DNA from: a virus
Virus record (IMG/VR): IMGVR_UViG_3300035115_000017
Location: 2,342 to 66,341 of that record
Length of the DNA stretch: 64,000 nt
Direction: 5' to 3' (one strand)
The notes under the pieces are model-generated. The model did no database searches. It worked only from the letters and a program-made list of their open reading frames with translations, and had not been told where the DNA came from. Every line of letters begins with the position of its first letter. The stretch's first letter is position 1. Shown here in pieces: positions 1-54,748 of this stretch. The translations under genes and the position numbers were made by a program.

Positions 1-444
1 GTAGTGCTGAGACGAGTGGTTGCGTTTGCACTTGCTGGGGCGAATGAGGTGCTGACGTTGGATGCAGACGCACCGACGACAACCTCGCTCCGCTTCATCT
101 CCCTGCTCAAGTACTGTCGCTTAGACGCGGACCAACTCGAACTCGCGTGGCAGACGGACAACAAGATCCAAGTCGCGTGGAGGTTCAGGGAGCCACTGAT
201 GACGCCGGAGGGAGTGGGCGTGTCGTCGCTGTCGCCGAGTGCGTCGTTGTCAGGGTCGGTTAGCCCAAGCGGCTCAGCTTCTCCTTCAACCAGTACCTCT
301 CCGAGCTTGAGTTCATCGTTATCAGTTTCGCCATCGTCATCCATCAGTCCGAGCAGTAGCACTTCGCCCTCTCACTCGTCATCCCATTCACCCTCCCCTT
401 CCGCGTCTGTGTCACCCAGTCACAGCGCATCTCCTTCAACTTGA
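1..444 (+). CDS. 3' part of a tail structural protein ending in a Ser/Pro tract (SPSHSASPST)
   Basis: Frame is open from position 1. RFISLLKYCRLDADQLELAW resembles the C-terminus of siphovirus tail structural proteins. About 75 aa of S-P-S repeats precede the stop. Confidence 0.6.
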   Translation, partial: VVLRRVVAFALAGANEVLTLDADAPTTTSLRFISLLKYCRLDADQLELAWQTDNKIQVAWRFREPLMTPEGVGVSSLSPSASLSGSVSPSGSASPSTSTSPSLSSSLSVSPSSSISPSSSTSPSHSSSHSPSPSASVSPSHSASPST

Positions 445-16649: not shown

Positions 16650-16777
16650 TTCTTCTTCTTATTCCAATGTGGAGATTGACAAAGCTGGTTCGGACATTTG
16701 ACAGGCTCGCCAGTCTGCTTGCGCTTGAGCCATGAATGACCGCACTGCTTGCATCGTCGGAGTGTGCCTTTGTTCAT
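16646..16777 (-). CDS. 43-aa Zn-ribbon protein
   Basis: MNKGTLRRCKQCGHSWLKRKQTGEPVKCPNQLCQSPHWNKKKK; below the track cutoff. Confidence 0.65.
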   Translation of the reverse strand: MNKGTLRRCKQCGHSWLKRKQTGEPVKCPNQLCQSPHWNKKKK

Positions 16778-16785
16778 GGGAGGGC

Positions 16786-16814
16786 ATACTACAACAACAA
16801 CAACAGCGTGTCAA
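16786..16814 (-). promoter_or_regulatory. Sigma70-type promoter
   Basis: TTGACA-17 bp-TAGTAT; ATG 8 nt downstream. Confidence 0.7.
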
Positions 16815-17938: not shown

Positions 17939-17991
17939 CGTGATTTGGGACTATACATCCTTCCTTGAACAGAATCAAGGTTTTATTTCCA

Positions 17992-18021
17992 TTGACATCA
18001 AATGTATTCAAGATTTATATT
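17992..18021 (+). promoter_or_regulatory. Sigma70-type promoter for the HTH-helicase cassette
   Basis: TTGACA-18 bp-TATATT; ATG 8 nt downstream. Confidence 0.55.
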
Positions 18022-18029
18022 GAGCACCT

Positions 18030-18263
18030 ATGAGCAAGTCCAATGGAAAGTATTTAACAGTTCAGGAATTTGCCAAGCGCGTTGGTATTTCAGAGGCCGC
18101 AGTTTACCTCGCCATTAAGGAAAAGCGCATCGGCTGCATCAGTGCGTTTGGAGAGCGCAAAGCTATTCCGGCGGAAGAATTGGACTATCTCACCCGGCGG
18201 TCGAAGACGGAAGCAAAGCAGACCAAAGTGCTCCGTCGTGATCGATTCGATCTAGTTGCTTAA
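18030..18263 (+). CDS. Excisionase-like helix-turn-helix DNA-binding protein
   Basis: YLTVQEFAKRVGISEAAVYLAIKEKRI. Confidence 0.8.
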   Translation: MSKSNGKYLTVQEFAKRVGISEAAVYLAIKEKRIGCISAFGERKAIPAEELDYLTRRSKTEAKQTKVLRRDRFDLVA

Positions 18264-18278
18264 GTACTGCTCTATCAA

Positions 18279-33983: not shown

Positions 33984-35654
33984 ATGCCGCTGCGTCGCAA
34001 CCAACGCCTGCCGCGTAATCTCAACGAGTGGCCCCCCGAAGCCCTCCTGCTGTATCGGGACTACTTGCGGTCACTTGATCCTCCGGGGGAACAGTTCCGC
34101 CAACGCTACATGAACGATCCGGTGGGATTTGCACGCGAATGTGTTGAATGGGGCGCGGGTGAGGGGCTAACTCTCTACCAGCAGGAGATTCTCTCGGCCC
34201 TCGTCACCGAACGTCGTGCCAATGTCTGTCGCGCTGCCGTGCGTGGGCCACATACGCTCGGGAAGACCTGCGTTGCTTCAATCGCCATCCTCTGGTTCGC
34301 GCTCACGAGAGACGATCTCCCTGACAAGTCCGACTGGAAGATCATCACCACTGCGTCAGTGAGCAGGCAATTGACCGACTTCCTCTGGCCCGAAGTGCGC
34401 AAGTGGTCCACGCGGGTTAAGTGGGACAAGGTAGGACGAGCGCAATTCACCCAGTACGAACTCATGGCTGAGACACTGCGACTGAAGACTGGCAAGGCAT
34501 CGTCGATCACCTCGTCCGAGGAGACTGGAACTGAGGGCGGGCACGCTGATCATCTCCTCTACATCTTCGACGAAGCGAAGGCAATCGAACCCTCCCGCTG
34601 GGATGCGGCTGAAGGGGCACTCATGGGCGGTGTCGGGAAGGAGATCATCGCGCTCGCTATCTCAACCCCGGGTGATCCGCAAGGTCGGTTCTTTGAGATC
34701 CACAATCGCAAGCCGGGATTAGAGGATTGGTGGGTGCGGCATGTGACTATTGACGAGTGTATCGCAGCAGGACGAGCCACGCCTGAGTTCGTCGAGCAAC
34801 GCCGTCGGCAGTGGGGCGAGAATTCAGCGGTTTTTCAGAACCGCGTACTGGGAAACTTTTGCGAGTCTACCGAGGATACAGTCATCCCTCTTGCGTGGGT
34901 GGAAGCGGCCAATGAGAGGTGGTTGAAGCGAATCGAAGTACAACATCATCTACCTAGCTGCGCAAGAGACTGCCATGAAACGCACTGGAACTGGGTAGAC
35001 GGAGCCGAGCGTGGTCTATGGCCCAAACAGCAATGGCGATCCGGTCGTGACGAGGAAGACTTCACTTGCGTCGGCGTGGACATCGCGCGCTCGGATCTGG
35101 GCGACAAGACGGTTGTAGCCCGACGACAAGGGAATACGATCACGCAACTGGACCGCTACTCGATTGCCGACACGATGCCGATCGTAGGTAAGGTGAAGGG
35201 AGTGCTGGAGCGTTACACTCACGCCTATGCAATGGTGGACGTGATTGGAATCGGGAGCGGTCCAGTGGATCGTCTCCGCGAACTGTTCCCGGCGAAGCGT
35301 ATTCTTGCGTTCAATGCATCAGAGGGTACAAATCTCAAGGATCGTGGCAAGGAACTGGAATTCTCGAACTGTCGCAGCGCCGCGTGGTGGAACATGCGCG
35401 AACTGCTCGATCCAGCTTACGACTCCGACATCGCCCTCCCGCCATGCGACATGCTCACGGGCGATCTCACTGCGCCCAAACGCGGCAAGGATACTTCCAG
35501 CGGCAAGATCACAGTTGAGAGTAAGAAGGACATTCGCAAACGACTGGGGCGATCCACTGATGATGGAGATGCGGTCGTGATGGCGTTCTTTCCGAAGCGC
35601 CGCTACGTTGAGCAGGTGGAAGTTGAGTCCTACTCCTACATGGAATACGTCTAA
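33984..35654 (+). CDS. terL: Terminase large subunit
   Basis: Walker A RGPHTLGKT, Walker B YIFDEA, ISTP coupling motif, nuclease VGVDIA and DDGDA. Confidence 0.93.
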   Translation: MPLRRNQRLPRNLNEWPPEALLLYRDYLRSLDPPGEQFRQRYMNDPVGFARECVEWGAGEGLTLYQQEILSALVTERRANVCRAAVRGPHTLGKTCVASIAILWFALTRDDLPDKSDWKIITTASVSRQLTDFLWPEVRKWSTRVKWDKVGRAQFTQYELMAETLRLKTGKASSITSSEETGTEGGHADHLLYIFDEAKAIEPSRWDAAEGALMGGVGKEIIALAISTPGDPQGRFFEIHNRKPGLEDWWVRHVTIDECIAAGRATPEFVEQRRRQWGENSAVFQNRVLGNFCESTEDTVIPLAWVEAANERWLKRIEVQHHLPSCARDCHETHWNWVDGAERGLWPKQQWRSGRDEEDFTCVGVDIARSDLGDKTVVARRQGNTITQLDRYSIADTMPIVGKVKGVLERYTHAYAMVDVIGIGSGPVDRLRELFPAKRILAFNASEGTNLKDRGKELEFSNCRSAAWWNMRELLDPAYDSDIALPPCDMLTGDLTAPKRGKDTSSGKITVESKKDIRKRLGRSTDDGDAVVMAFFPKRRYVEQVEVESYSYMEYV

Positions 35655-35911: not shown

Positions 35912-38900
35912 ATGGCAACCAAGCTCTATCTCGAATCGACTGCGTTCAGTCCAATTACCCCCACTCCCAACGCGGGCTGGACGGATCAAACCCAGTTTGC
36001 GCGCTTTGCTGCTGGCACTACTAAACTCTCCTCCACTATGACCACGCGGAACTGCACCTCCGCCGTCTCCACGCAACTCGACATCATCCTCGCCCAATTC
36101 ATCTCGCATCCCCTTGACGCAGGCCAGACTATCACGGGCGGGCAGAACATCTCGATCGTCATACGCGAGGCCGAGACCGCAGCGGCAAATAACCTCTTCT
36201 TTACGTGGGCGGTCTATATCTTCAACGGCGCGACCTTGCAGAAAACACTGATTGCGAAACGTCAGGACGGGACTGAACAGACTTCCAGCTCGCTCACGAC
36301 GAGAAGCGCAACCGTGGCGAGTGTGGCGGGGAATTACACGACGGTTGCAGGGGATCGCATCGTCGTCGAAGTAGGACTCAATGGAGATCCGGGTGGGACA
36401 AACACGCATGGTGGATCCATTAGTATCGGTTCCGATTCCGCTACCGACCTTGCGATCACGGATGGTGTCACGACGGCGAACAATCCGAATCTCATCCTCA
36501 CCGATACGCTCACCTTCAACACGACAAGCGCGAGTCCGAGTGTCAGTCCTTCCCCTAGCCTTAGTCCGTCAGCGTCAGCTAGCCCATCGGCCAGTGTGAG
36601 TCCATCCTCCAGCGCGAGTGCGTCAGTCAGTCCTTCACCTTCAGTTTCCCCGTCAAGCTCGAACAGTCCGAGCCTATCTCCCTCAAGCAGCGCGTCACCA
36701 TCGAGTTCCGTCTCTCCTTCGATCTCGCCCAGTCCGAGTGTCTCTCCGAGTAGTAGTGTCAGTCCCAGTGTCTCGCCGAGTCCGAGTGTGAGTCCGTCCA
36801 GCTCAACTTCACCCAGTCTCTCGCCGAGTAGCAGTCAGAGTCCTTCGGCGAGTGTTTCTCCAAGTATCTCGCCTTCATCGTCAGCCAGTCCAAGCTCAAG
36901 TGTCAGTCCGAGTGTCTCTCCAAGCTCAAGTACAAGCCCGTCATCCAGCATCTCCCCTTCAATCAGCCCTAGCGCATCTACGAGTCCGAGTAGTAGTGCC
37001 TCTCCCTCATTTGGCCCAGCTAACTTCCCTACCACGCCAATCCTCGACAACTTCAATCGCGCTGACGAAGACCCGGCGACGGGGTGGTCGCGAGTCTTCG
37101 CAGGCGAGCTGCGGGTATTCGCGGTTAGTAGTAACGCTGCGTTCATAGACGACAGTCTGGCAAATGGTGGCAATACTCTCAGCGGAGTATTTGACGTTGC
37201 TCCTGTCAGCGTCGATCAGGAAGCTTATATCACGCTGAGAAACGCCGATGTTGGGGTATTTGACGAAGTGCGCGTGTTATTGCGCATGAACGGGCCGATG
37301 ACAGGGGATGTGAGCGGCTACGGAGTAGGGTACCGAAACACGGGCGATCTGATTGCCTACACATTTGCAGGTACGGGGACAAATACCGAAATTGGCTCGG
37401 TTCCAATCGTCCTCACCGATGGCGACAAGATCGGTGCGCGTATCACTGGCGATCAACTCGAACTCTGGACCAAGCAGGGCGCAGGCGCGTGGACCAAACA
37501 GACGACGATCACCGATTCCACCTACAGTGCCCCCGGACAGATTGGTTTACAGCTCCAGATCATTGCAGGTAACGCGCTCATTGAAGCAGACGACTTTGGC
37601 GGCGGGGTAGCGATCATCGGTTCGCCCTCGATCAGTCCGAGCGCTTCTGCTTCCCCTTCAGCATCAGAGAGCGCGAGCGTCAGCCCTTCAGTTTCACCTT
37701 CGATCTCTCCCAGTAGCAGTCCCAGTCCGAGCGCAAGTCTTTCTCCGAGCGCGTCTCTTTCCCCCAGTGCGAGCGCGAGCCCTTCCCCGCCACCTGTGAC
37801 TGCGCAAGGGTTGAACTTCCGCGCTACGTCCACTTTTGTCACGGACGGGACGGATCAAACTTACGTTCTCGGCGACGCTTACCCTACTACACGTAATGGA
37901 GTGACTTTCGGCTACGAGTTTGACGTACCCACAATCCGGGATAACAGTTCAGGCGTCGATCCCCGACTTGCGGGTGAACATAGATTTTTCAACGAAGCAG
38001 AATCAGTCCCGACAGTGTTTCGAGTCGATCTCCCCTCCGCCGGAGACTACGACATTCGTCTCGCGCTCGGCAGTGCCACTGGGGCACGCGTCACGACGAT
38101 CGACATTCAGGACGATCATACCTCTCGACTGAGTTTTGTCGATGCCTCCACCGCAAGCGGAAGTTTTGCCGATGCAACTGGCTCAACTCATACCGCTGCC
38201 AACTGGCCCGCGAACAACTCCCTCGTCACGCGCACGTTCTCCTCGGGAATCCTGCGCATCGTACTGGGGAATACGAATGACTCGGGATTCTCCGGGTTGG
38301 CCCACCTTGCGTTTGCACTTGTCCCTGAAGAGAGCAGTAGCGAGTCGGCATCAGCCAGTCCGTCCAGTAGTGCGAGTGTTTCGCCTTCAGCGTCAACTTC
38401 TCCGTCTGCAAGTGAGAGTCCGTCAACCTCCCCGAGTAGCAGTGGTTCTCCTTCGTCCTCTACAAGTCCGAGCGTCAGCCCGAGCGCATCGCAATCTCCG
38501 AGCGCGAGTGAATCTCCAAGCGTTTCTCCCAGCGCTAGCCAATCGCCAAGTTCGTCAGCGTCGGCGAGCACCAGCCCGAGCGGTTCCACCTCCCCGAGTT
38601 CATCGGAATCGCTCTCGATTTCTCCGAGTAGCAGCACAAGTCCTAGCTCGTCAGAATCACCTTCAGTTTCGCCCTCTGCCAGTACCAGTCCGTCGTCGAG
38701 TGAGTCGCCCAGTGTCAGTCCATCGGCCAGCCAATCCCCCTCGTCTTCCGCCAGCGCCTCGACCTCGCCCAGTGCATCGCAAAGCCCGTCCGCCAGTGAG
38801 AGTGCGAGTGTTTCGCCTTCGCCGAGCCAGTCCCCGTCCGGTTCGGTAAGCCCATCAGTTTCCCCGAGCCCGTCGCAGAGTCCGTCGTCCTCGACATCTC

Positions 38901-40177
38901 CCAGCGTTTCACCGAGCAGTTCGACATCTCCGAGTAGTAGCGAGTCGCCCTCGATCAGTCCGTCGTCCTCGCTCAGCCCGAGTTCAAGTGAATCTCCCAG
39001 CCAGTCCCCGTCGTCATCACAATCACCAAGTTCGAGTGCTTCAGCGAGTGTGAGCCCATCTCCCAGTCAAAGCCCGAGTGCGTCTACCTCGCCCTCTGTC
39101 TCACCCAGCCCCTCACTCTCCCCGTCCAGCAGTGAATCACGTTCGGTCTCTCCTTCTGCTTCGACCTCACCATCATCGTCAGAATCCGCATCACAATCCC
39201 CCAGCAGTTCCCCCAGCCCGTCATCCTCTGAGAGCCCGAGCGTGAGTCCGAGTGCGAGCACCTCACCTAGTAGCAGTGAGTCGTTGAGTGTTAGTCCCAG
39301 TAGTTCAGCCTCGCCTTCATCCAGCACGAGTCCATCTGTCAGCCCGAGTGCGAGTCAAAGTCCGTCTAGCTCAACGTCAGCATCTACCTCTCCTAGCTCA
39401 AGTGAGAGTGCCAGCCCGAGTCTGGGTTCGTCGTCAGAGTCTCCGTCGGTCAGCCCTAGCCTCTCACCAAGCGCATCGGTCTCACCCTCGATCAGCCCTT
39501 CACCGTCCCTCTCACCATCTGCAAGTGCGAGTAGTAGTCAATCGCCGAGCCCGAGTGTCAGCCCGAGTCATAGCGCCTCCGCTTCCCTCTCACCTAGTGC
39601 GTCCACTTCACCAAGCGCAAGTGAGAGCAGATCACCGAGTCCATCAGCGAGTGTTTCTCCAAGTTCAAGCGCATCTCGCAGCCAGTCGCCATCAAGTAGT
39701 GTCAGCCCCAGTTCAAGTGTCTCTCCATCACTCTCTCCCAGCCACTCGGAGAGCGCGAGTGCGTCAGCTTCCACTAGTCCGAGCAGCAGCGAGTCGAGAT
39801 CTCCTTCGCCATCCAGTAGTGCATCCAGTTCAGCGAGTCCTTCGTCCAGTGAGTCTCCTTCAACTTCCCCGAGCGAGTCAGTCTCAGCCTCGCAATCCCC
39901 CAGCGCGTCGCAATCTCCGAGTATCTCTCCTAGTTCATCAATCTCCGTCAGCGAGTCGCCTAGCATCTCGCCTTCGTCATCCCCGTCAGCTTCGATCTCA
40001 CTCAGCACCAGCCCATCACTCAGCCCCTCACACTCAGCTAGCCCGAGCGGGCCGTTGCCCCGAGTGGTTCATGCTCGTTTCACTTCACGTCAGTCGTCAG
40101 TTGTGTTCGTCCCACGCAAGTCGGGAGTTGTGTTTACGGCACGAGCAGCATCCGTGCAATTCGCAGTTGACAACTAA
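35912..40177 (+). CDS. Giant mucin-like Ser/Pro-repeat protein with three globular beta-rich domains (putative virion fibre)
   Basis: 1421 aa; S-x repeat blocks at ~36527-37009, ~37622-37790 and ~38332-40048 separating beta-sandwich-like domains. Confidence 0.8.
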   Translation: MATKLYLESTAFSPITPTPNAGWTDQTQFARFAAGTTKLSSTMTTRNCTSAVSTQLDIILAQFISHPLDAGQTITGGQNISIVIREAETAAANNLFFTWAVYIFNGATLQKTLIAKRQDGTEQTSSSLTTRSATVASVAGNYTTVAGDRIVVEVGLNGDPGGTNTHGGSISIGSDSATDLAITDGVTTANNPNLILTDTLTFNTTSASPSVSPSPSLSPSASASPSASVSPSSSASASVSPSPSVSPSSSNSPSLSPSSSASPSSSVSPSISPSPSVSPSSSVSPSVSPSPSVSPSSSTSPSLSPSSSQSPSASVSPSISPSSSASPSSSVSPSVSPSSSTSPSSSISPSISPSASTSPSSSASPSFGPANFPTTPILDNFNRADEDPATGWSRVFAGELRVFAVSSNAAFIDDSLANGGNTLSGVFDVAPVSVDQEAYITLRNADVGVFDEVRVLLRMNGPMTGDVSGYGVGYRNTGDLIAYTFAGTGTNTEIGSVPIVLTDGDKIGARITGDQLELWTKQGAGAWTKQTTITDSTYSAPGQIGLQLQIIAGNALIEADDFGGGVAIIGSPSISPSASASPSASESASVSPSVSPSISPSSSPSPSASLSPSASLSPSASASPSPPPVTAQGLNFRATSTFVTDGTDQTYVLGDAYPTTRNGVTFGYEFDVPTIRDNSSGVDPRLAGEHRFFNEAESVPTVFRVDLPSAGDYDIRLALGSATGARVTTIDIQDDHTSRLSFVDASTASGSFADATGSTHTAANWPANNSLVTRTFSSGILRIVLGNTNDSGFSGLAHLAFALVPEESSSESASASPSSSASVSPSASTSPSASESPSTSPSSSGSPSSSTSPSVSPSASQSPSASESPSVSPSASQSPSSSASASTSPSGSTSPSSSESLSISPSSSTSPSSSESPSVSPSASTSPSSSESPSVSPSASQSPSSSASASTSPSASQSPSASESASVSPSPSQSPSGSVSPSVSPSPSQSPSSSTSPSVSPSSSTSPSSSESPSISPSSSLSPSSSESPSQSPSSSQSPSSSASASVSPSPSQSPSASTSPSVSPSPSLSPSSSESRSVSPSASTSPSSSESASQSPSSSPSPSSSESPSVSPSASTSPSSSESLSVSPSSSASPSSSTSPSVSPSASQSPSSSTSASTSPSSSESASPSLGSSSESPSVSPSLSPSASVSPSISPSPSLSPSASASSSQSPSPSVSPSHSASASLSPSASTSPSASESRSPSPSASVSPSSSASRSQSPSSSVSPSSSVSPSLSPSHSESASASASTSPSSSESRSPSPSSSASSSASPSSSESPSTSPSESVSASQSPSASQSPSISPSSSISVSESPSISPSSSPSASISLSTSPSLSPSHSASPSGPLPRVVHARFTSRQSSVVFVPRKSGVVFTARAASVQFAVDN

Positions 40178-40203
40178 TTCCCATTGTAGTACGTTATACT
40201 CCC

Positions 40204-40395
40204 ATGAAGCGTGGAGTAAAGGATACTCATATTTACTTCCCTGTAAAAGTGCTGGCTGAACTGAAGAAATTAGCGGCAGTGAACAGGCGGAGTGTCTCAG
40301 CGGAGATTGTTGTCGCAGTTGAGGACTACATAAAGGAACGATATGCGAATGAGCTGGAGACGAACGGCACGCGGAAGAAGGAGCGGTCGAGATGA
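40204..40395 (+). CDS. Arc-like ribbon-helix-helix regulator
   Basis: THIYFPVKVLAELKKLAAVNRRSVSAEIVVAVE; TTGACA at 40167 upstream. Confidence 0.8.
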   Translation: MKRGVKDTHIYFPVKVLAELKKLAAVNRRSVSAEIVVAVEDYIKERYANELETNGTRKKERSR

Positions 40396-40586
40396 AGAGT
40401 CGATCTTTGTTCTTTATCGCAAGCGCGGTTAGCGGCCTCGGAACCGGACTTGGTATATCGATGGCGATTACTGGGCATATGACAGCGGCTGTAGTCGCCC
40501 TGTCCGTTGCCGTGTTCGCTGTTTGGCTTCGTACCAACCTGTTATTTGGTGCAGTTATTGAATACTTAGGACAGCGCGATGGCTAA
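40392..40586 (+). CDS. Small two-TM membrane protein
   Basis: Two hydrophobic segments; overlaps both neighbours. Confidence 0.55.
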   Translation: MKSRSLFFIASAVSGLGTGLGISMAITGHMTAAVVALSVAVFAVWLRTNLLFGAVIEYLGQRDG

Positions 40587-42579
40587 ACTCGCAATTTTAA
40601 TTCCCTCCCGTAACGAAACCTACCTCTTTCCAACGATCCATGAGTGCTTCACGAAGGCCGAGGGTGAAGTCGAAGTGATCGCGGTTCTCGAAGGCTACTG
40701 GCCGGACAAGTGGAAAGAGATCACCGACCAGTTCCCCAACCTGCACACCATCCACCACGGCGAGCCGCGTGGACTGCGCGCAGCGATCAACTCAGCCGCA
40801 GGTTCCGCGATCTCTCGTGGCGCAAAGTACCTGCTCAAGCTCGACGCGCACTGCATGTTGGACGAAGCCTACGATACTAAGTTGCAAGCGGACATGGAAT
40901 CGAATTGGATTGTCGTCCCGCGCCGCAAGCGTCTCAATGCCGAGAGTTGGACCGTGCAGGATGTCGGCAAGCCGGATGTTGATTACCATTACCTCTCCTT
41001 CCCTGACGATCCTAACGACTTCGGCGGCAAGGGACTAAATGGAAAGGTGTGGTACGAGCGGATTCGTGAGCGACTGGATAAGCCGCAGTACGACATCGAT
41101 GATGAAATGTCGAGTCAGGGGTCGTCGTGGTTCATGGCTGCGAGCTACTTTCAGGAACTTGAACTCATGGACGAGGTGAGTTATGGGCCATTTTGGAATG
41201 AAGCGCAGGAACTTTTTCTGAAGTGTTGGCTCAGCGGCGGACGCGGAGTTATCAATAAGAAAACATGGTACGCCCACCTCCATAAAGGCAAGGAATACAA
41301 AGGCGAGGACGGCAAAGGCGGGCGTGGCTATCACCTCTCTGAAGCATGGCTCACGCAAGGCGCAACTTTCACAAAGAACTGGATCTGGAATGACGCATGG
41401 GCCAAGCAAACTCTCCCTTTCAAACGGTTGATTGAACACTTCTGGCCTGTGCCGGGATGGAAAGAGAACTGGGAGGAGGTGTTGTATGCGGAGCGGAAGC
41501 CAAGAACCGTGGTGGGTGTTACTGCTCGCGCTGGGAGTAGCCACGATTCTCTACCTGTTGTTAATGACGGTAGCAGTGCTACTGGGCCGGGATCACTGAA
41601 GATTCATTCTGCGTGGTACGGAATCGGCCCACCGCCGGATACGGTGGACGTTGGCGCGCGCTTGCAGTCATTGGTCAAGGACGGCTCTCTGGACATTGTG
41701 GTGAATAACGCCACTCTCTGCCCCGGTGAGAATCCATTCCGAGGGAAGAAAAAGACACTGGCCGTTCATTACTCCTACGACGATGGTCCTATTCAGGCGA
41801 TTGAACGCGACGAGAAAGACTGGCTCATCATCGGGCAGGTGCAGGAGCCGCCGTCGCCGCCAATCGTCAACGTTGAAAGTCACGTATCAACCGTAGCCCG
41901 TGCCGAAGCGGGAATCTCAATTACGCCCGCCGCTAAAGGCGCACCGATGACAGCGGTTGCCCTCAACGACTACCTCATCCGCAAGTTCTCCATCTCTCCG
42001 CAGCGCCTGCGTGGACCAATGCCGATCGAACTGCGCGACTTTCATCGGAACGACTTGGCGCAACTGTTTGCTGAACTAGGATTCAAACGCGGCGCTGAGA
42101 TTGGCGTGGCGGAAGGAAAGTTTAGCGAGGTGCTACTGAAGGCGAATCCTGAGTGCGAGCTGCTGTTGGTTGACCCGTGGGAGAGGTATTCAGGAAATCC
42201 ACAGAATAAGACCGAGGAGAAGCACGGCTTTGCGCGTCAGGAAACTCTTCGCAAGACCGCCCCTTATCCCAACGTCAGAGTCTACGACGACACTTCAATG
42301 GCCGCGGTTGAGACAGTTGATTACAATTATCTTGATTATGTCTACGTGGACGCGAATCACCTTTTTGATTACTGCATCATGGATCTCATCGAGTGGTCCA
42401 AGCGCGTGCGCTCCGGCGGCATCGTCTCTGGTGATGATTTCTATCAGTTGGACCAGCGCAGGTGGATCGGCGGTGGCGTAGTCGAAGCCGTGCAGGCGTA
42501 TACGAACGCGCACCGGATTCCGATTTGGTACTTGTTCAGTGGACACAAGAGTGTTGATTTTATGTGGGTCCGGCCATGA
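40579..42579 (+). CDS. Glycosyltransferase (GT-A, ppGalNAc-T-like) + SUEL/Gal-lectin-like domain + class I SAM methyltransferase
   Basis: ILIPSRNE, LKLDAHC, ELFLKCWLSGG...AHLHK; IHSAWYG...DVGARL...NPFRGKKKTLAVHY; GAEIGVAEG, YVDANH, SGGIVSGDDF. Confidence 0.85.
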   Translation: MAKLAILIPSRNETYLFPTIHECFTKAEGEVEVIAVLEGYWPDKWKEITDQFPNLHTIHHGEPRGLRAAINSAAGSAISRGAKYLLKLDAHCMLDEAYDTKLQADMESNWIVVPRRKRLNAESWTVQDVGKPDVDYHYLSFPDDPNDFGGKGLNGKVWYERIRERLDKPQYDIDDEMSSQGSSWFMAASYFQELELMDEVSYGPFWNEAQELFLKCWLSGGRGVINKKTWYAHLHKGKEYKGEDGKGGRGYHLSEAWLTQGATFTKNWIWNDAWAKQTLPFKRLIEHFWPVPGWKENWEEVLYAERKPRTVVGVTARAGSSHDSLPVVNDGSSATGPGSLKIHSAWYGIGPPPDTVDVGARLQSLVKDGSLDIVVNNATLCPGENPFRGKKKTLAVHYSYDDGPIQAIERDEKDWLIIGQVQEPPSPPIVNVESHVSTVARAEAGISITPAAKGAPMTAVALNDYLIRKFSISPQRLRGPMPIELRDFHRNDLAQLFAELGFKRGAEIGVAEGKFSEVLLKANPECELLLVDPWERYSGNPQNKTEEKHGFARQETLRKTAPYPNVRVYDDTSMAAVETVDYNYLDYVYVDANHLFDYCIMDLIEWSKRVRSGGIVSGDDFYQLDQRRWIGGGVVEAVQAYTNAHRIPIWYLFSGHKSVDFMWVRP

Positions 42580-43539
42580 TAATTTACGTGTTAATCGGCG
42601 ATATCGCCGACGATGCCGAGGAGCCGTTTGATAAGGAAAAACTGGAAGGCTCGTTTTCATCGCTGGAGCAGGTTCAGCTTTACATTACTGAATGCGTCAG
42701 CCAGCAATCATCCTTCCAGTGGGAGCCGATAGTTAGCTTTGAGCATGTTCCCTATCTTGAGACCAATGGCTTCAGGGTTTACCTTACTACCTTAGACGAA
42801 GGTAGCTGGCGAAGTTTCGGTAAGATTGTTTTAGCCGGGACGGTGGACGATAAGGGTGACGTAAACGTGAACACGCCCGCTGAGGTAGCTCGGCTGTCAG
42901 GCATATTTGCCGAAGCGTTGGGTCTAACCGTTCAGGAATTTAGTGAAAGATACTAAACTATGACCTTCACCGAAACCCTCCATGCTATCTTCGATCTCAA
43001 CAAACACGCTCGTCGTCGGCTCTGGTCATCTCGCATCCTCGTCGGACTGGAAGAAGGCCGACTTTGCATCAAGGGCTACTCGTCCAGTGGACCAGATGAC
43101 GGCCTCTGGCACCCGTGGGTGATTACGGAGGAGGATTATTTTGCGAGTGATTGGGAGGTGGTGGAGTGAGAACTAAGGAAGAAATCGTGGCCTCGGTTGG
43201 CTGTCGAATACTCAATAGCAACGAAACTGATTTACTGATGTACGTACTGGAAGTCCTGCTCGACATTCGCGATCTACTCTCCACTCAACCAAAATCCATG
43301 AATCTTCGTCAGGTGATCGTTGACAGCTACCCTCACGGTAATAAGAAGGATGAGGCATGAGTGAACCGGAATCGGGAAAGTTCTATTGGGTGAAGATAAT
43401 TAACGTAGGAGAATGGGAACCCGCTGAGTGCGTGGACACCGACTACGGTCAAGGATGGCTGCTAACGGGCGTAGAAGTGGAATACTACGCTAACGAGATC
43501 GGGGAGATAGGACCGGAAATCGTTCCACCTGCGGATTAG
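42576..43539 (+). other. Four small hypothetical genes between the glycosyltransferases (42576-42956, 42960-43169, ~43166-43360, 43357-43539)
   Basis: Overlapping start and stop codons in the same operon. Confidence 0.5.
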
Positions 43540-43563
43540 TGTTCGTGCTATCATCCTCTCCCG

Positions 43564-45855
43564 ATGACACGCTACCACTTGTCGGTATTGATCCCCGCTC
43601 GCAACGAATACTACTACGATATCGATCTCCTCTACGAGACAGTTGTCAACGTTTTGGCTAACACGTCGAAGAAGACTGAATGCGTCGTCGTATTGGATGG
43701 GTATGACAACCAGTGGCCCAACCAGCCGCTCCCCGTAGACTCCCGTCTCACCGTCATCCAACATCGCAAGTCCATTGGTCAACGCGCGGCGACGAATGAG
43801 GCGGCACGAGTTGCGCAAGGGGAATATGTCGCGAAGTTAGACGCGCACTGCGCACTTGATGAGAACTTCGACGAGAAGCTCCTCGCGACGTTTGAGCCGC
43901 ATTGGACAGTGGTGCCCGGTCAATTCAATCTGCAAGTCTTCGAGTGGCGTTGTAAACGCTGCGACTGGACAAAGGATCAATCACCGAAGCCTGCAAAGTG
44001 TGAACAGTGTGGTTCTCGCTATCTCAAACAGGTGAAGATCTGGCAACCGAGGGATGGGAAGGGCGGGCGTAGGACGGCGTATACGCACTCGTGGCGATTC
44101 GATACCAACCTCGACTTTCAGTATCACGGCGCATACGCCTCAGATGAAAAGTATTGCAAGAAGAATGGAATTCCCTTTCACCCTGAAACTCAACAGCCAA
44201 TACATGACACTATGAGCTTACTGGGCGCATGTTGGGCGATGCGCAAAGATCGTTACGAATACCTTGAGGGCCTAGATGAATCACTAGGTTCGTGGGGCGA
44301 TATGGGAACCGAGTTGTCGTGTAAGGTATGGCTGTCCGGGGGTGAGCTAAAGGTTAATCAAAATACTTGGTTCGCTCATTTTTTCAGGGTCGGAGGTATA
44401 GGGTTTCCATATCCAGACGGAGGGCGAAAAGAGCGGGCGAAAGCCAGAGGCAAAGAGATTTGGCTTAATAACAAATGGCCCAAACAGGTCTATCCCCTGT
44501 CGTGGTTAATTGAAAGGTTCCGACCTTTACCTGACTGGCACACGAACGACAATCCTGTACTAGGTCAGGTCAACGCTACTGGTAAGAAGTTTCGCTCTCT
44601 CGTACCAAGCCCGCTTGGTAATTTTCTGGCAGATAGTACACTGCCGCATCCACTTACCGCCGTGGCAGACGGGAGCAGGGAGAAGATGCCCGCGAATGCA
44701 GTGGGTTTTTCTCCTGTTGATAACAGAGGGAACGTTTCCGCGCTCAAAGTTGACGCTATCGGGAACCAAGTCGAGATGGATAGGATTGCAGCACCTTCTA
44801 TTCCGACAGAGATGGTCCAGTGTGGGAATATCTCTGCTTCTGCCTCTTGGCAAGGGACCGATAAGCCAAGCGTAAATGACTCTATGGACCAACGACTCCC
44901 GAGTGCGGTAGGTGGTTCTGCCGTATCCGGCATCGTCCAGTCTACCGATCCAATTCCAGCAGGTGTCGGTGATCTCGATCTTGGAAAACAGGCGGATAAT
45001 GTCTTGAGTGTTCAGGGTAACAATGAGATATTTTTGGGTAGCCATGATTCAGCTTCCTTGCACGATGCTGGATTGCGGTCAGGACCGGAGTCGCGCATAC
45101 AACGTGATTCCGGCCCGACAATCATAACACAAAAGCTACCGCGTAAGCTTTGTCTTTACTACACCTGCAACTCCCACGACCTCACCCTCGAACTCGCCGC
45201 GCGCAACAACCTCCGTGCCTCCACCAACGGCCACGAACTGGGTTGCGTGTCACTCCAACGAACCGACTTCGGCGATTGGACACTGGTGCTAAACAGAGAG
45301 AAGTCAGGCGGAACGATGCACTATCAGATTCTTACGGGACTGGAGAGATCGACAGCGGATTATGTGTTCCTGTGTGAGTCCGATGTCCTGTATCACCCTA
45401 GCCATTTCCAGTTTGTACCACCTGACGATTCAGTAATCTACTACAACACCAACGTCTGGCGCGTGCGCTACTCAGATGGTCACGCAGTTCGCACGGCTAA
45501 TCTCCAACAGGTGAGTGGAATCTGCGCGAATCGCCTCCTCCTCCTCGCTCACTACAAGCGTCGAGTCGAGCTAATAGAAGCCAACAACGGCATCTTCGAC
45601 GTGAAGCGCATGGCCTATGAACCGGGGACGCGCGGGAAGTTCGGAGACGAGAAGATCGCCAACTGGCAATCGGAGTTTCCGAACCTCGACATCACCGGGC
45701 ATGGCAACACGCTCACCGTGCCACACTTTTCTATCGACAGTTTCAGAAACAAGAAGTACGCTGAGGGCTGGGAAGAGACTGATGATGCTCTGCCGGGCTG
45801 GCCTAAGATCAGTGGTAGGGTACAGGAGTGGTTGGAGGAGTTGGCACATGGTTAA
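43564..45855 (+). CDS. Two-domain glycosyltransferase (ppGalNAc-T-like GT-A with Zn ribbon + second GT-A domain)
   Basis: VLIPARNE, AKLDAHC, CKRC/CEQC, GACWAM...GLDESLGSWGDMGTELSCKVWLSGG...AHFFR; second domain ADYVFLCESDVLYHPSHF. Confidence 0.85.
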   Translation: MTRYHLSVLIPARNEYYYDIDLLYETVVNVLANTSKKTECVVVLDGYDNQWPNQPLPVDSRLTVIQHRKSIGQRAATNEAARVAQGEYVAKLDAHCALDENFDEKLLATFEPHWTVVPGQFNLQVFEWRCKRCDWTKDQSPKPAKCEQCGSRYLKQVKIWQPRDGKGGRRTAYTHSWRFDTNLDFQYHGAYASDEKYCKKNGIPFHPETQQPIHDTMSLLGACWAMRKDRYEYLEGLDESLGSWGDMGTELSCKVWLSGGELKVNQNTWFAHFFRVGGIGFPYPDGGRKERAKARGKEIWLNNKWPKQVYPLSWLIERFRPLPDWHTNDNPVLGQVNATGKKFRSLVPSPLGNFLADSTLPHPLTAVADGSREKMPANAVGFSPVDNRGNVSALKVDAIGNQVEMDRIAAPSIPTEMVQCGNISASASWQGTDKPSVNDSMDQRLPSAVGGSAVSGIVQSTDPIPAGVGDLDLGKQADNVLSVQGNNEIFLGSHDSASLHDAGLRSGPESRIQRDSGPTIITQKLPRKLCLYYTCNSHDLTLELAARNNLRASTNGHELGCVSLQRTDFGDWTLVLNREKSGGTMHYQILTGLERSTADYVFLCESDVLYHPSHFQFVPPDDSVIYYNTNVWRVRYSDGHAVRTANLQQVSGICANRLLLLAHYKRRVELIEANNGIFDVKRMAYEPGTRGKFGDEKIANWQSEFPNLDITGHGNTLTVPHFSIDSFRNKKYAEGWEETDDALPGWPKISGRVQEWLEELAHG
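44560..45045 (-). mobile_element. HNH homing endonuclease gene nested antisense within the glycosyltransferase ORF
   Basis: CWNWIG...GYG...VHRV...LDHLCRNRRCCNPIHL...N; C-terminal KTHCIRGH...CTIC; SD aagga. Confidence 0.88.
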
Positions 45856-45976
45856 CAGCAAAGTAATTAGCATTGATGAGTCGCACTACGATTGGGACTG
45901 CCATATTTGCGGTCATCGCAATGGTAGCAGGCAGGACTACTGCGGTTGCTGTGGTGCTCATGTCTACGAGAACTAA
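45848..45976 (+). CDS. 42-aa RanBP2-type zinc-finger peptide
   Basis: WDCHICGHRNGSRQDYCGCC fits W-x-C-x2-C-x3-N-x6-C-x2-C; SD ggagg. Confidence 0.55.
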   Translation: MVNSKVISIDESHYDWDCHICGHRNGSRQDYCGCCGAHVYEN

Positions 45977-46368
45977 TGGCTAACGAATGTCTCATCTCCG
46001 TGAACGAACGCACCGAGTTCCCGCTCGCAGTGGCGTTCTTCGATGAGAATAGTGAGCCAGTGGTCCCGACTTCAGCCACCTATCGCATCGACGACGAGGC
46101 GAGTAAGACAGCGATCGTCCCAGTAACCAACTTTCCCTCACTCTCGACATTAGTTGACCTGTGGATCACCTCGGACCAGAACTTCATCGTGAAGTCTCGT
46201 AGCAAGTCGGAGATTCGCACCGTCACCGTCCAATACATCTACGAATCCGAGAATGGTCCAACGCCAGCCACGGCGCAGTACAAGTACAAGGTGCTGAATC
46301 TGTATGGAGTGGTGGATGTGCCCAGTGCGAGCATGTCGCCGAGTTCAAGTGCGAGTCCGAGTGTATGA
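45976..46368 (+). CDS. Ig-like putative structural protein with a short Ser/Pro tail
   Basis: Beta-rich sequence ending VPSASMSPSSSASPSV; TAATG overlap. Confidence 0.65.
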   Translation: MANECLISVNERTEFPLAVAFFDENSEPVVPTSATYRIDDEASKTAIVPVTNFPSLSTLVDLWITSDQNFIVKSRSKSEIRTVTVQYIYESENGPTPATAQYKYKVLNLYGVVDVPSASMSPSSSASPSV

Positions 46369-46380
46369 AGGAGATCTTTT

Positions 46381-46680
46381 ATGAGTCCAATGAGTCCCGT
46401 GATACCAATGACTGCCGTTGAAGAAGTTGTTTACGCCAAAGACCAGCCAGAGTATCAACCGTTGCCATCTATTCGAGCGCCTGACGGTACGATCTTAACC
46501 CGCTGGAGTCTTGACGAAGACGAGAGGCGGCAAGTTGCTGAGCAAGGTTACGTGTATCTCATGGTGATGACATTTAACCAGCCCTTGCAGCCACTGCTTA
46601 TGACGGTCGATCCTCCTGACGACTTCATGCCGACTTCGATTGACAGAGAGCAGATCACGGACATTGAGGGCCAGCATTGA
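46381..46680 (+). CDS. Phage hypothetical protein
   Basis: SD aaggag; YAKDQPEYQPLP motif. Confidence 0.65.
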   Translation: MSPMSPVIPMTAVEEVVYAKDQPEYQPLPSIRAPDGTILTRWSLDEDERRQVAEQGYVYLMVMTFNQPLQPLLMTVDPPDDFMPTSIDREQITDIEGQH

Positions 46681-48383
46681 CGAAGCCTTTCTCAGCATGG
46701 GACTACGACGACGCCGCGAACCAAGTCGGCGCGCGGTTCCAATTGCCTGCTGAGGGAACACGAGAGTTCCGTCTCCCTTCAATCCTCGAAGACCTCGTCG
46801 GCGTAAACGATCATCGACCGGCTACCCGTCGAACCGAATGCGCCATCCGCGCCACTGAGTTCTATCGCGGCAACCACTGGCAATGGGGACACGGATTCAT
46901 CGGCCAACTCCCACCAGCCTCCCTTCCCGGCGCGGAGTCGATGAAGAACGCAATTCGCAAAGGGTTTGTCAGCGAGAACGTCATCAAGGAAGTGGTGAAG
47001 ACGCATGTGGGTGGCATCCTCGGACGCGAGCCCTCGTGGTCATTCCTCGTCACTGAGCAGGACGATCCCGAAGGCGCGCAGAAGGAGTTCTCCAAAGAAA
47101 CAGGCAATACTCTCACGCGCTGGTGGAATGATCGACTAGCGTTGAAGGACCTGCAGAAAGCGGCGCGGATACTGGTGTGTGAAGGGGTGGTGGTGAGACG
47201 GCTAGTGTTCCCGAGAGGTCGTCTCAGTAACGGTCGCAATCCACGCGCTTCCTCGCTCCTTGACGCGCTCGACTTCATCTTCTTCGAGACGGTGTACGCT
47301 GATCGTGGCATGGTTTACACCGATCCTGAGACGATGATGGATCTAGGGATTTTCCTGTTCGATGAACTGGACGCGAATGGGGACGTAGTAACGAACTGCG
47401 CGGAGTTGAGCTTCCTGAACGACGCAGGTGAGACGGTGTGCAAAGTGGTGCGCGACAAGGGTGCGCCAACCGAGTATGGTCCCTACCCCCTCGGCGGTCG
47501 TCTCCTCGTCTATGAAATGACGCGCGACGCTCTCATCACCGAGCAGATCCAATCCAATCAGCGCGCCGTTAACCTCGCCCATACGCAGATGATTCGCAAC
47601 GTGAATCTCGCTGGACATCGCCAGCAGACGATCACTAACGCAGTCCCGCCCGGTGCGACGAATGAGAAGCCAACGATTACCGAGGACACGACGAGGGTTA
47701 GCTCCACTCCGACTGCGACTTCCCCAACGACAAAGAAATTCCCCGGTACGTTCAAAACAGGCGCAGGCGCAGTCAATTTCCTCATGGGAATGCCGATTTA
47801 CAATGAGGATGGGATTGTCGTCGGCTACACCGATCCCGGCATCAACATCAGCGATCCAGTGTCAGTTGAAACATTTGAACGCACGATCGATAAAGAGAAA
47901 GCCGCGATCTACGCACAGGCGCACCAGCGTCATGTCCTGATCGTGGACAAGGCAGATACGAGTGGACGAGCGCGAGAAGTGGCGAGACGTGAGTACGAGC
48001 GCTCACTCAAGGAGTCGAAGACTGAGTTAGATGCATGTGGACGCTGGCAATTGGAGACGACTCTGCGCCTCGCCGCATTCATCATCAACCAATCTTCGCG
48101 CTACTTGCCACTGAGGGCAGATTTCAACACGCTCATCGATGCAGGTGCGCCTGATCCCGAGATGATCAAAACCTCTCTGCTCATGCGCCAACCCGGAGGG
48201 ATGAAAAATCGACCGTTGGTGAGCGATGAGACGGCGCGAGGGCTAAGCGGAGTGGAAGACAACGCGGCAGAAGAGGCACGTATCGACAAGGAATCAAAAC
48301 TTCCTCCGGCTGAGCTACCCGAAGGACTTAAGCCCATCGAAGGCCAACAAACTCCAAAACCCGTAAGTAACGCAGTTAACTGA
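46677..48383 (+). CDS. Portal protein
   Basis: 568 aa; FYRGNHW, ENVIKEVV...ILGREP, SGRAR, SDETAR...EEARI; precedes scaffold and capsid genes. Confidence 0.75.
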   Translation: MTKPFSAWDYDDAANQVGARFQLPAEGTREFRLPSILEDLVGVNDHRPATRRTECAIRATEFYRGNHWQWGHGFIGQLPPASLPGAESMKNAIRKGFVSENVIKEVVKTHVGGILGREPSWSFLVTEQDDPEGAQKEFSKETGNTLTRWWNDRLALKDLQKAARILVCEGVVVRRLVFPRGRLSNGRNPRASSLLDALDFIFFETVYADRGMVYTDPETMMDLGIFLFDELDANGDVVTNCAELSFLNDAGETVCKVVRDKGAPTEYGPYPLGGRLLVYEMTRDALITEQIQSNQRAVNLAHTQMIRNVNLAGHRQQTITNAVPPGATNEKPTITEDTTRVSSTPTATSPTTKKFPGTFKTGAGAVNFLMGMPIYNEDGIVVGYTDPGINISDPVSVETFERTIDKEKAAIYAQAHQRHVLIVDKADTSGRAREVARREYERSLKESKTELDACGRWQLETTLRLAAFIINQSSRYLPLRADFNTLIDAGAPDPEMIKTSLLMRQPGGMKNRPLVSDETARGLSGVEDNAAEEARIDKESKLPPAELPEGLKPIEGQQTPKPVSNAVN

Positions 48384-51216: not shown

Positions 51217-51624
51217 ATGTGGTTTCAGAAAATTAACAATCGCCTCATGCGCACCTACTCGAACAACGGGCGCACCTACGGGGCGGTAGCCTACGGCGTT
51301 GACAGCGCGGGCAAGTTCATCGTTATTGGCACAACAACTGATCTTGTACTCGACTCGAACATCCAGAACGGAAAGTTGTCAGCCTATGGTAAGGGCTCGA
51401 TTGCACTGAATCCCGCAGGTGGGTTCTTCACCGTGGACGCAGATGGGTTGTGGCAGTCAGCGACGTTGACTACTGCGAGTCAAAGTGCTTCGCCGAGTAG
51501 TTCAGTATCGCCCAGCGCGTCAGGCAGTCCAAGTTCATCGGCGTCTCGCTCAGCGTCTCCCAGTGCCAGCGTTTCCCCGAGTGCTTCAGTTAGCCCGAGT
51601 CACTCAGCTAGTCCGTCAACCTAA
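51217..51624 (+). CDS. Putative head fibre/decoration protein with a Ser/Pro tail ending SPSHSASPST
   Basis: SD aggag; beta-rich ~85 aa plus ~50-aa S/P tract. Confidence 0.7.
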   Translation: MWFQKINNRLMRTYSNNGRTYGAVAYGVDSAGKFIVIGTTTDLVLDSNIQNGKLSAYGKGSIALNPAGGFFTVDADGLWQSATLTTASQSASPSSSVSPSASGSPSSSASRSASPSASVSPSASVSPSHSASPST

Positions 51625-53899: not shown

Positions 53900-54748
53900 A
53901 TGGGACTGTGGTCAGGACAAGGTCCGGTATTCTGGGCCAATCGAGACGCAAACGGAGACCCCGTGGCTCCCTTCACGTGGTTCGGCAATGCGCCGACTTT
54001 TGAGTTCGGTATGGCGGTCACGGATCTTACGCACAAAGAGAGCTATTCGGGGCTGCGGGCGATTGATGCGCGCATTGACACCGAGCTGAACGCCACGACA
54101 AATATCACGGTAGATGACTTCCGGGAGACGAATCTGGAACTCGCAACCAGAGGTGAAGCGAGTGCGTTGGCAGGTTCAACTGTCACAGCGGAACAAGTGC
54201 TCGCAGGTGCGCCGTCACTGAACACGCTCTATGCGGTCGCAGGTGCAACTGGGCGCGTCTCCGGCTTCTCGCTCACCGACAACGGCACGCCGATCTCAGC
54301 TACTAAGTACTCATGGGATGCATCAGGCGTGTTCCAGTTCAGTGACGTGGCAGGGATGACCGGGCCGATTGCGGCAACTTACACAAATGCTGCCAGTCGT
54401 CAGATCGGCGTGTTCAAACGCGCGGCTCCTGAGATCTGGATTCGCATGATTGGTAAGAACACGGCAGTCAACTCTGGGACCGACTTTGAGCGCGTGATTG
54501 TCGAGGCATTCAAGGTGCGACTCAGCCCAGCGGAGACGATCTCGCTGATTGGTGACGAATTCAACACGCTCGCATTCACTGGATCAGCACTAGCCGACAC
54601 TACTCGTGCGCAATCCGATCCCGAGGGCCAATTCGCGCGCTTCATCTACCTCGATCCGGGCGCAGCGGTGCCATCGGCTTCCGGTTCACCGTCGCCGTCG
54701 CCGAGTGCGTCAACTAGCCCGAGTCATTCGGCGTCGCCTTCGACGTAG
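53900..54748 (+). CDS. Major tail (tube) protein with a Ser/Pro tail ending SPSHSASPST
   Basis: WSGQGPVF...WFGNAP..F...HKESYSGLR...NLELA...KVRLSPAETISLIGDEF...GSALAD. Confidence 0.85.
   Translation: MGLWSGQGPVFWANRDANGDPVAPFTWFGNAPTFEFGMAVTDLTHKESYSGLRAIDARIDTELNATTNITVDDFRETNLELATRGEASALAGSTVTAEQVLAGAPSLNTLYAVAGATGRVSGFSLTDNGTPISATKYSWDASGVFQFSDVAGMTGPIAATYTNAASRQIGVFKRAAPEIWIRMIGKNTAVNSGTDFERVIVEAFKVRLSPAETISLIGDEFNTLAFTGSALADTTRAQSDPEGQFARFIYLDPGAAVPSASGSPSPSPSASTSPSHSASPST

Follow-up and report, generated by a model that had tools for sequence, protein, structure and literature searches.

A phage genome block that pairs GT27-like glycosyltransferases with serine-repeat proteins: a candidate module for cytoplasmic O-glycosylation of virion proteins

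Cytoplasmic glycosylation of long Ser-x repeats is known from Gram-positive cocci, in which Fap1, GspB and PsrP are modified by adjacently encoded enzymes to yield a fibre-like surface product; the Fap1 and GspB systems employ a GT4 initiating pair (GtfA/GtfB), accessory Sec export and an LPXTG cell-wall anchor. The polypeptide GalNAc-transferases (ppGalNAc-Ts) of animals and protists belong to family GT27, the Gal/GalNAc-T motif of which is W-G-G-E-N-x-E. Glycosylation of virions has, to our knowledge, been documented so far for just a few mycobacteriophages, where it alters antibody recognition. Here we describe a locus that can be set against each of these systems, found in the metagenome-derived virus record IMGVR_UViG_3300035115_000017 of IMG/VR. 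The window, that is, the whole stretch of 64,000 nucleotides that was analysed, corresponds to bases 2342-66341 of this complete 66,341-bp record, which carries a 127-bp direct terminal repeat and is of siphovirus type. Within it, the interval of ~11 kb between the gene for the large terminase (terL) and that for a probable portal protein encodes a giant Ser-x repeat protein, P0001, and two glycosyltransferases, P0002 and P0003. The block is likely to be a phage-borne module by which Ser-x tracts of virion proteins are O-glycosylated in the cytoplasm. No such module was described in the literature found on GT27 or ppGalNAc-Ts in phages or on mucin-like or serine-rich repeat phage proteins, and the word "phage" is absent from a 2024 review of viral O-glycosylation.

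Both glycosyltransferases begin directly at the first strand of a GT-A domain. In P0002 (40579..42579, + strand), this domain (residues 1-300; Glycos_transf_2, E = 7e-9) is followed by a small β domain (residues 344-413) of the DnaJ-like_C11_C/DUF3395 type, which scored 28.4 bits against a cut-off of 27.1 when scanned alone, and by a class I S-adenosylmethionine-dependent methyltransferase (residues 507-621; Methyltransf_24, E = 1.1e-11). In P0003 (43564..45855, + strand), the GT-A domain (residues 1-345; Glycos_transf_2, E = 2e-17) is connected by a disordered linker (residues 349-524) to a conserved C-terminal domain with an E-S-D motif (residues 528-763). These Pfam domains bear out a first-pass annotation of the window, which had noted two GT-A glycosyltransferases in the block, one of them with a methyltransferase. 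The N-terminal domains of the two proteins are paralogues (40 and 39% identity, E = 4e-17 and 1e-14), and in more distant relatives two GT27-like domains and the methyltransferase are found in one protein of ~930 amino acids (aa).

That annotation had also proposed a comparison with GT27, and Foldseek, VIA structural alignment and sequence matches in the PDB all favoured the ppGalNAc-Ts. In a search of PDB sequences with P0003, all 15 matches at E ≤ 0.002 were ppGalNAc-Ts (best E = 2.4e-8), and the alignments spanned a DxH motif, a W-G...E motif and a later histidine (LDAHCE and GHVFR in the GalNAc-Ts). An AlphaFold (AF2) model of P0003, computed from an alignment of 17 family members, gave a predicted local distance difference test (pLDDT) score near 90 for the N-terminal domain. 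Among the Foldseek matches listed for this model, ranks 1-49 were all ppGalNAc-Ts (E = 8e-17 to 2e-14), with GalNAc-T2 at E = 8e-17. Structural alignment with VIA gave Z scores of 26.2 for GalNAc-T1 (269 residues, root mean square deviation (rmsd) 3.0) and 25.5 for TgGalNAc-T3 from Toxoplasma, whereas every other GT-A enzyme scored ≤17.9, which places the GT27 enzymes 8 Z units higher.

The metal site of GT27 is formed by the DxH motif and a later histidine, which in mouse GALNT1 are Asp209, His211 and His344, according to passages of PMC4202792. In P0003, Asp93-Ala94-His95 and His272 were invariant in 17/17 aligned family members, P0002 among them. The N-terminal domains of P0002 and P0003 are the closest known relatives of the animal and protist ppGalNAc-Ts, and the presumed acceptors in this phage, like those of mucin-type glycosylation, are rich in serine and proline and disordered.

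The differences from the ppGalNAc-Ts are equally clear. Sequence identity between P0003 and these enzymes is only 17-22%. Neither P0002 nor P0003 has a Pfam match to a ricin-type lectin domain or carries a type II membrane anchor, the maximal 19-residue hydropathy being 1.03 for P0002 and 0.84 for P0003, so that the phage enzymes would be cytoplasmic and not Golgi proteins. They are, moreover, fused to or paired with a second glycosyltransferase-like domain and a methyltransferase. A Cys4 zinc-ribbon (Cys130, Cys133, Cys146 and Cys149, each at least 90% conserved; residues 130-149, 43948-44013) interrupts the GT-A domain of P0003 and of most relatives but not that of P0002; this insertion explains the odd names "RpoP" and "rubrerythrin" attached to some source sequences, as well as weak matches to rubrerythrin in the PDB. 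Given the zinc-ribbon insertion, the lack of a lectin domain and of an anchor, and the replacement of E-N in the W-G-G-E-N-x-E motif, we refer to the enzymes as GT27-like and not as members of GT27.

The C-terminal domain of P0003 had no Pfam match at E ≤ 1. Residues 2-735 of the model aligned with two-domain polymerases (Z = 17.7-17.8, rmsd 17-18), with the C-terminal domain of P0003 falling over the second GT-A domain of the polymerase. The model thus suggests that this domain is probably GT-A-like, an assignment that the rmsd of 17-18 makes tentative. In 50,697 records of isolated phages, tblastn found no match to P0003 at E ≤ 1e-5, and the major capsid protein of this phage likewise had no homologue there at that threshold.

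The second component of the proposed module is a set of tracts with strict Ser-x alternation, defined here as (S-x)≥7. The window contains nine such tracts with 1034 residues in total. The first position of the repeat is serine in 517/517 units, and the second is most often proline (181), followed by alanine (90), serine (64), valine (48), threonine (33) and others. All six serine codons are mixed in the tracts, with none dominant, and the underlying DNA is barely repetitive, Tandem Repeats Finder reporting three tiny arrays of ≤2.2 copies across 4.3 kb. The mixed codons and the scarcity of tandem repeats indicate that the Ser-x pattern is kept at the protein level and is not the product of a recent DNA expansion. 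Low-complexity regions misassemble easily and the record derives from a metagenome, so that wrong-frame sequence, assembly noise or chance might be invoked as the source of the tracts. We give this explanation almost no credence: each of 100 shuffles of the sequence yielded 0 tracts against the nine observed, the frames that carry the tracts are long, open and continuous with recognised tail domains, dozens of independent contigs share this architecture, and the codons are scrambled in DNA that is not repetitive.

Most of the tract residues belong to P0001 (1421 aa; 35912..40177, + strand), a translated open reading frame (ORF) that we propose as the main glycan acceptor. The protein contains 494 serines and 167 prolines, and 790 of its 1421 residues lie inside tracts, in agreement with its earlier description as more than half Ser-x. 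Four tracts (36527-37012, 37622-37789, 38333-39424 and 39428-40051) are present, with Ser-x sequence lying between three globular domains (approximately residues 1-205, 368-570 and 627-807), and the polypeptide closes with a conserved, β-strand-like end of 40 residues. P0001 had no Pfam or PHROG match, and the domains scanned alone gave nothing usable at a Pfam E ≤ 1; a PDB sequence search with the two inner domains returned nothing significant, and the N-terminal domain resembled clusters of viral hypothetical proteins by features only (score high, close to the maximum). Giant proteins homologous to P0001 are present in relatives L004, L006, L016-L018 and L027. P0001 is possibly a long mucin-like fibre.

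P0001 invites comparison with Fap1 and GspB, with which it shares long and strict Ser-x repeats (serine at every first position and 790 tract residues in one protein). Several features set it apart. The ORFs of the block contain only GT2-type glycosyltransferase domains by Pfam, and no search aimed at GT4 or SecA2 was made in the rest of the genome. No hydrophobic segment, and none resembling a signal or an anchor, was seen in P0001 (maximal hydropathy ≤1.07), position x is mostly proline or alanine, and the setting is that of a phage virion.

Outside P0001, the tracts recur on other late proteins, as had been noted before: on proteins of 724, 135, 935 and 130 aa and on the tail tube. The window opens with the last 147 residues of a 724-aa tail protein (1..444, + strand; phrog_1082, E = 2.5e-67 over residues 250-641), which has a Ser-x tail of 72 residues (226-441). 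A late protein of 135 aa (51217..51624, + strand) has a tail of 48 residues (51478-51621); it had no family match, nor did its N-terminal domain at a Pfam E ≤ 1. The tail tube (53900..54748, + strand; phrog_807, E = 2.1e-53) has a tail of 24 residues (54674-54745). Here, the phrog_807 profile stops at residue 250 of 282, relatives of the tail tube in isolated phages match residues 1-251 only, and the homologue in phage Summit ends at that point. The Ser-x tails are, by sequence comparison, additions to virion proteins. A further tract (63528-63785) occurs in a 935-aa tail protein that spans the ends of the record and of which the window holds the first 774 residues (61677..63998, + strand; phrog_1101, E = 3.4e-58); in the full-length protein from the circularised record, this tract is not a tail but joins the tail-tip domain internally to a domain at the C-terminus.

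The 724-aa protein, the 135-aa protein and the tail tube are mutually unrelated, yet all three end in PSAS[VT]SPSHSASPST, with SPSHSASPST as the invariant terminus. Across these three tails, just 18-21 of the final 30 nucleotides are identical, and three different stop codons are used. Among relatives, SPS[V/T/A] closes every Ser-x tail. Within one genome, the variant on the 135-aa protein mostly agrees with that on the tail tube: five genomes have SPSHSASPST and two have SPSASASPS[AV]; a single locus is discordant. On this sequence evidence, the shared SPS[VTA]-COOH end looks like a C-terminal recognition tag. A search for close relatives by the tail tube alone recovered only 5 loci, all of them fragments or records already known, and the 135-aa protein was kept together with its tail in 8/80 of the viral enzyme loci considered below.

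For the 130-aa protein, P0126 (45976..46368, + strand), the ATG at 45976 is the most probable start, and a tail of 14 residues (46324-46365) forms the end. Homologues number 186, and of the 120 listed almost every one has a length of precisely 130 aa. In 34 homologues that diverge to 58% identity, Ser117, Ser119, Ser121, Pro122 and Ser123 of the tail are invariant, and Ser125, Ser127, Pro128 and Ser129 are at least 90% conserved. An AF2 model (pLDDT 84.5) shows an Ig/FN3-like β-sandwich with a disordered tail. The structural matches to this model were generic, with a best PDB Z score of 7.8, which is in the noise range of the tool, and Foldseek E values of 5e-3 for the PDB and 7e-8 for phage proteins in BFVD. 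The resemblance is to Ig/FN3-like folds in general, and P0126 is at most a candidate structural protein; of the small structural protein with a Ser/Pro tail that had been annotated, the tail was confirmed.

The nearest functional precedent, as an analogy, is the glycosylation of mycobacteriophage virions (Che8, Corndog and Myrna), in which capsid and tail tube subunits bear glycans at their C-termini, according to passages of two reports that cite Freeman 2023 (PMC12619734 and PMC12363180). Che8 likewise encodes its own glycosyltransferases, and its gp108 has the same GT2 plus Methyltransf_24 architecture as P0002. Homology of the phage enzymes to gp108 was nevertheless undetectable (BLASTP of P0002, E = 0.09; hhalign probability with the family profile, 4%), the direct comparison covering gp108 and not gp109, gp110 or Corndog gp38. 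The sequence of gp108 reads D-D-D-D where the P0002/P0003 family has D-A-H, and gp110 is GT25-like. The acceptors differ too: the capsid and tail tube proteins of Che8 have no Ser-x tract and terminate in ...NKTGS and ...YSDGS, whereas the phage described here has dedicated tracts of 14 to >360 residues and a giant repeat protein, and its tail tube is tailed while its major capsid protein is not.

The association of enzyme and tracts was examined across genomes. A profile scan of IMG/VR gave 482 stretches with relatives of the enzyme, the best 80 of which were examined with flanks of up to 10 kb; these loci were picked by the glycosyltransferase alone and only then scored for tracts. At least one ORF with (S-x)≥7 was present in 66/80 loci, always on the strand of the enzyme, and all of the viral loci of at least 18 kb (31/31) held at least 100 tract residues. 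The methyltransferase domain was found in 58/80 and the C-terminal domain of P0003 in 68/80. By contrast, the capsid or portal gene of this phage occurred in only 8/80 and the N-terminal domain of P0001 in only 4/80, which argues that the linkage of enzyme and tracts is not the plain co-inheritance of one lineage. As a control, 80 IMG/VR loci were collected by similarity to terL, comprising 5 close relatives and 75 distant loci (932 kb, none with the enzyme). The giant Ser-x protein is encoded by all five close relatives, of which two extend as far as the enzyme gene and the other three are contigs that stop short of it. None of the 75 distant loci reached 50 tract residues. Expressed per 100 kb, tract density was 2603 residues in the viral enzyme loci and 28.5 in the 75 enzyme-free loci, a ~90-fold difference, and four regions of isolated phages (72 kb) contained no Ser-x tract. 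The co-occurrence of tracts and enzymes in IMG/VR that the first-pass annotation had envisaged is therefore borne out. In all, 1169 clusters at 50% identity match the enzyme family at E ≤ 1e-3.

A scan of prokaryotes, with one genome per species, gave 57 loci, all from metagenome-assembled genomes (MAGs); these matches are ≤46% identical and taxonomically scattered. A Ser-x ORF of the same kind, often starting directly after the enzyme gene, was present in 35/57, and 20/22 of the loci of at least 18 kb held at least 100 tract residues. A Woesebacteria chromosome of 916 kb (L126) and a Parcubacteria contig of 455 kb (L128) encode the enzyme alongside additional GT2 proteins and a Methyltransf_24 protein. 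In these members of the candidate phyla radiation (CPR; Patescibacteria), genes for a UDP-GlcNAc 2-epimerase, a carbamoyltransferase, large Ser-x proteins and proteins with cohesin, dockerin or bacterial Ig-like domains lie near the enzyme genes. The module is not confined to phages, and its CPR version looks, from gene content, like a cellular surface-glycoprotein form. Such a cell-surface setting fits protein glycosylation and speaks against DNA as the target.

A number of observations weigh against glycosylation of the tracts, and several of them would be accommodated if the tracts were unmodified flexible or extended spacers and the enzymes acted on host wall teichoic acid, lipopolysaccharide or capsule, in superinfection exclusion comparable with that of prophage TarP, or on phage DNA. 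The GT27 sugar-binding motif is only partly retained: Trp244, Gly245 and Glu250 of P0003 are kept at equal spacing, but the G-E-N positions read D/Q-M-G, so that the residues of GT27 that contact UDP-GalNAc are not preserved and, with E-N of W-G-G-E-N-x-E replaced, the donor may not be UDP-GalNAc. P0002 had no PDB sequence match at E ≤ 1. The GT-A fold is common property; enzymes of teichoic acid and polysaccharide synthesis share it with P0003 at Z = 16-18 (16.3-16.7 for TarS and TarP), and the class of acceptor is not readable from it. The tract in the 935-aa tail protein is an interdomain linker, and a 662-aa protein encoded at 463-2451 has Pro/Thr linkers too. Short linkers also exist in phages that lack the enzyme. 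Six high-GC phiAsp2-like loci (L207, L210, L213, L218, L222 and L224) each encode one protein of ~270-335 aa, just upstream of terL, with an (S-A)n or S-x stretch of 14-46 residues (24-46 for the (S-A)n linkers) and no enzyme. For five of the six, the enzyme profile was run against the entire record, two of these records being complete, and gave no match. A Ser-x stretch by itself is thus no proof of glycosylation; it is long tracts, borne by several proteins, that form the specific signature.

Further points of the same kind concern the survey and the virion. The survey ran in one direction, from enzyme to tracts, as the six codons of serine leave no DNA pattern on which an unbiased tract-first search could be based. 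There was no tract in the flanks of 14/80 viral loci, most of them short or truncated, or in 22/57 MAG loci, mostly short but including 2/22 of those of at least 18 kb. No Ser-x tract is present on the major capsid protein, and P0001, the 135-aa protein and the 130-aa protein are at most presumed to be located on the virion. The glycan itself is a proposal made from sequence.

Even so, we regard unmodified spacers as unlikely. The ~90-fold enrichment of tracts beside the enzyme, in unrelated lineages and on CPR chromosomes, is hard to explain by spacers. Tails that are fixed in length and sequence and that share a C-terminal tag written in varied codons are unlike passive linkers. The GT27 enzymes exceed any other GT-A enzyme by 8 Z units, no hydroxymethylase or other DNA-hypermodification gene was present among the 20 early ORFs scanned, and the enzymes have no membrane segment. 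Glycosylation of the tracts on virion proteins remains the reading that we favour as likely.

The following minimal scheme would account for these observations. Two soluble glycosyltransferases would be made in the cytoplasm of the infected cell and, since neither the enzymes nor P0001 have a signal or transmembrane segment, would share a compartment with virion protein synthesis. One or both of the GT27-like domains would initiate by transferring a sugar from a host nucleotide-sugar to serines of the (Ser-x)n tracts. The C-terminal domain of P0003 would then probably extend the glycan, and the methyltransferase of P0002 would probably methylate it. The acceptors would be P0001, with its 790 tract residues, and the tails or linkers of the 135-aa protein, the 130-aa protein, the tail tube and two further tail proteins. 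The outcome would be a virion of which at least the tail bears a glycan brush. Sugar transfer, the sugar and its linkage, methylation, the division of labour between the glycosyltransferases and the role of a coat are all read from sequence in this scheme, and shielding, adhesion and diffusion as functions are speculation. The glycan coat on head, tail and fibre put forward in the first-pass annotation is accordingly supported in its core by the comparative evidence, but not for the head, given the tract-free major capsid protein.

It is also conceivable that the Ser-x tracts are glycosylated but that the main product is a non-virion glycoprotein, such as a matrix, decoy or adhesion factor that is released at lysis or stays intracellular, with the short tails being incidental. 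The commonest partner of the enzyme is indeed an adjacent giant Ser-x ORF, of 600 to >3200 aa, and not a tailed virion protein; P0001 matches no structural family, and the cellular versions adjoin surface proteins with cohesin, dockerin and Ig-like domains. We nevertheless judge this quite improbable, because tracts are present on three proteins with clear tail-family matches, relatives have kept those tails, P0001 is encoded within the late operon in the terL-portal interval and lacks a signal peptide, and there is precedent for glycans on the C-termini of tail tubes.

The remaining genes of the block are small. A ribbon-helix-helix (RHH; Arc/CopG-like) protein of 63 aa (40204..40395, + strand) matched RHH_5 (E = 4.5e-5) and Arc (E = 3.5e-3), both scores being below the curated Pfam cut-offs, and PHROG families of Arc-like repressors at E = 6e-4 to 7e-3; the Arc-like regulator annotated earlier is thus retained, with that qualification. 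Homologues occur in 4/80 viral enzyme loci. It is followed by a 64-aa ORF (40392..40586, + strand) with one hydrophobic segment (maximal 19-residue Kyte-Doolittle score 1.96) and no family match in Pfam or PHROG. Four small ORFs lie between P0002 and P0003, one of which encodes a protein of 69 aa like Thoeris anti-defence 2 (Tad2-like; 42960..43169, + strand; PF11195, E = 9.2e-7, 29.8 bits against a cut-off of 25). The Tad2-like gene is probably unrelated cargo amid the block.

The upstream edge of the block is formed by terL (33984..35654, + strand; phrog_2, E = 6.8e-32), the product of which is 47% identical to the terminase of Streptomyces phage TurkishDelight (tblastn, E = 2e-121). The hints at a host diverge, the terminase being actinophage-like and the tail tube resembling those of proteobacterial (Stenotrophomonas and Pseudomonas) phages. 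TurkishDelight, which has the closest terminase among isolated phages, carries an annotated glycosyltransferase, gp20 (16432-18468), between its capsid and major tail protein genes. At the downstream edge lies the probable portal gene (46677..48383, + strand). This assignment, the weakest item in the description of the block, rests on position and on a look-alike search, in which 28/30 language-model matches fell in clusters of SPP1 Gp6-like portals and the Atlas feature score was close to its maximum; no Pfam, PHROG or PDB match and no BLAST similarity to the TurkishDelight portal were found. Of the terL and portal flanks originally annotated, the former is therefore secure and the latter probable.

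In the wider genome, the late arm is on the plus strand and includes, in addition to terL (phrog_2), a major capsid protein (phrog_29), a neck protein (phrog_5), the tail tube (phrog_807), a chaperone, a tape measure protein and several tail proteins. The early or replication arm is mostly on the minus strand and encodes a DNA polymerase A fused to a uracil-DNA-glycosylase-like domain, a D5-like primase-helicase and a PD-(D/E)XK nuclease. In the polymerase (11513-14188, − strand) the uracil-DNA-glycosylase-superfamily domain is N-terminal, and a NUDIX gene (10760-11212) and a nucleoside 2-deoxyribosyltransferase-like gene (14974-15444) are located nearby. The genome has no detected tRNA genes. 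Near the start of the window, the 662-aa protein mentioned above (463-2451, + strand) has an N-terminal hydrophobic anchor (hydropathy 1.99), a short Ser-x stretch, long Pro/Thr linkers and a large central domain without a family match; it is possibly a depolymerase or an enzyme involved in lysis. Positions 4147-4593 contain an XhlA-like ORF.

What is new in this analysis is the probable glycosylation of phage virions by a GT27-like enzyme family acting on a dedicated acceptor code. If this is correct, virion glycosylation would gain a different family of enzymes, one hitherto tied to the biosynthesis of eukaryotic mucins, together with a recognisable acceptor code that consists of strict Ser-x tracts and a common C-terminal tag, and its range would widen to include CPR bacteria and hundreds of contigs from uncultivated phages. 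It would then be possible to predict by a sequence rule which phage proteins are glycosylated, and compact soluble enzymes that use short tags may be of use in glyco-engineering. More tentatively, the mobile GT27-like module and its (Ser-x)n acceptors ending in SPS[VTA]-COOH may represent a widespread and hitherto unreported counterpart of mucin-type O-glycosylation in prokaryotes and viruses, cloaking tails and long fibres in many unrelated phage lineages and surface proteins in CPR bacteria. In that case, the eukaryotic ppGalNAc-transferases could have the GT27-like family as their prokaryotic sister group, or could even descend from it, and the module would offer a concrete route into the origin of the enzymes that initiate animal mucins.

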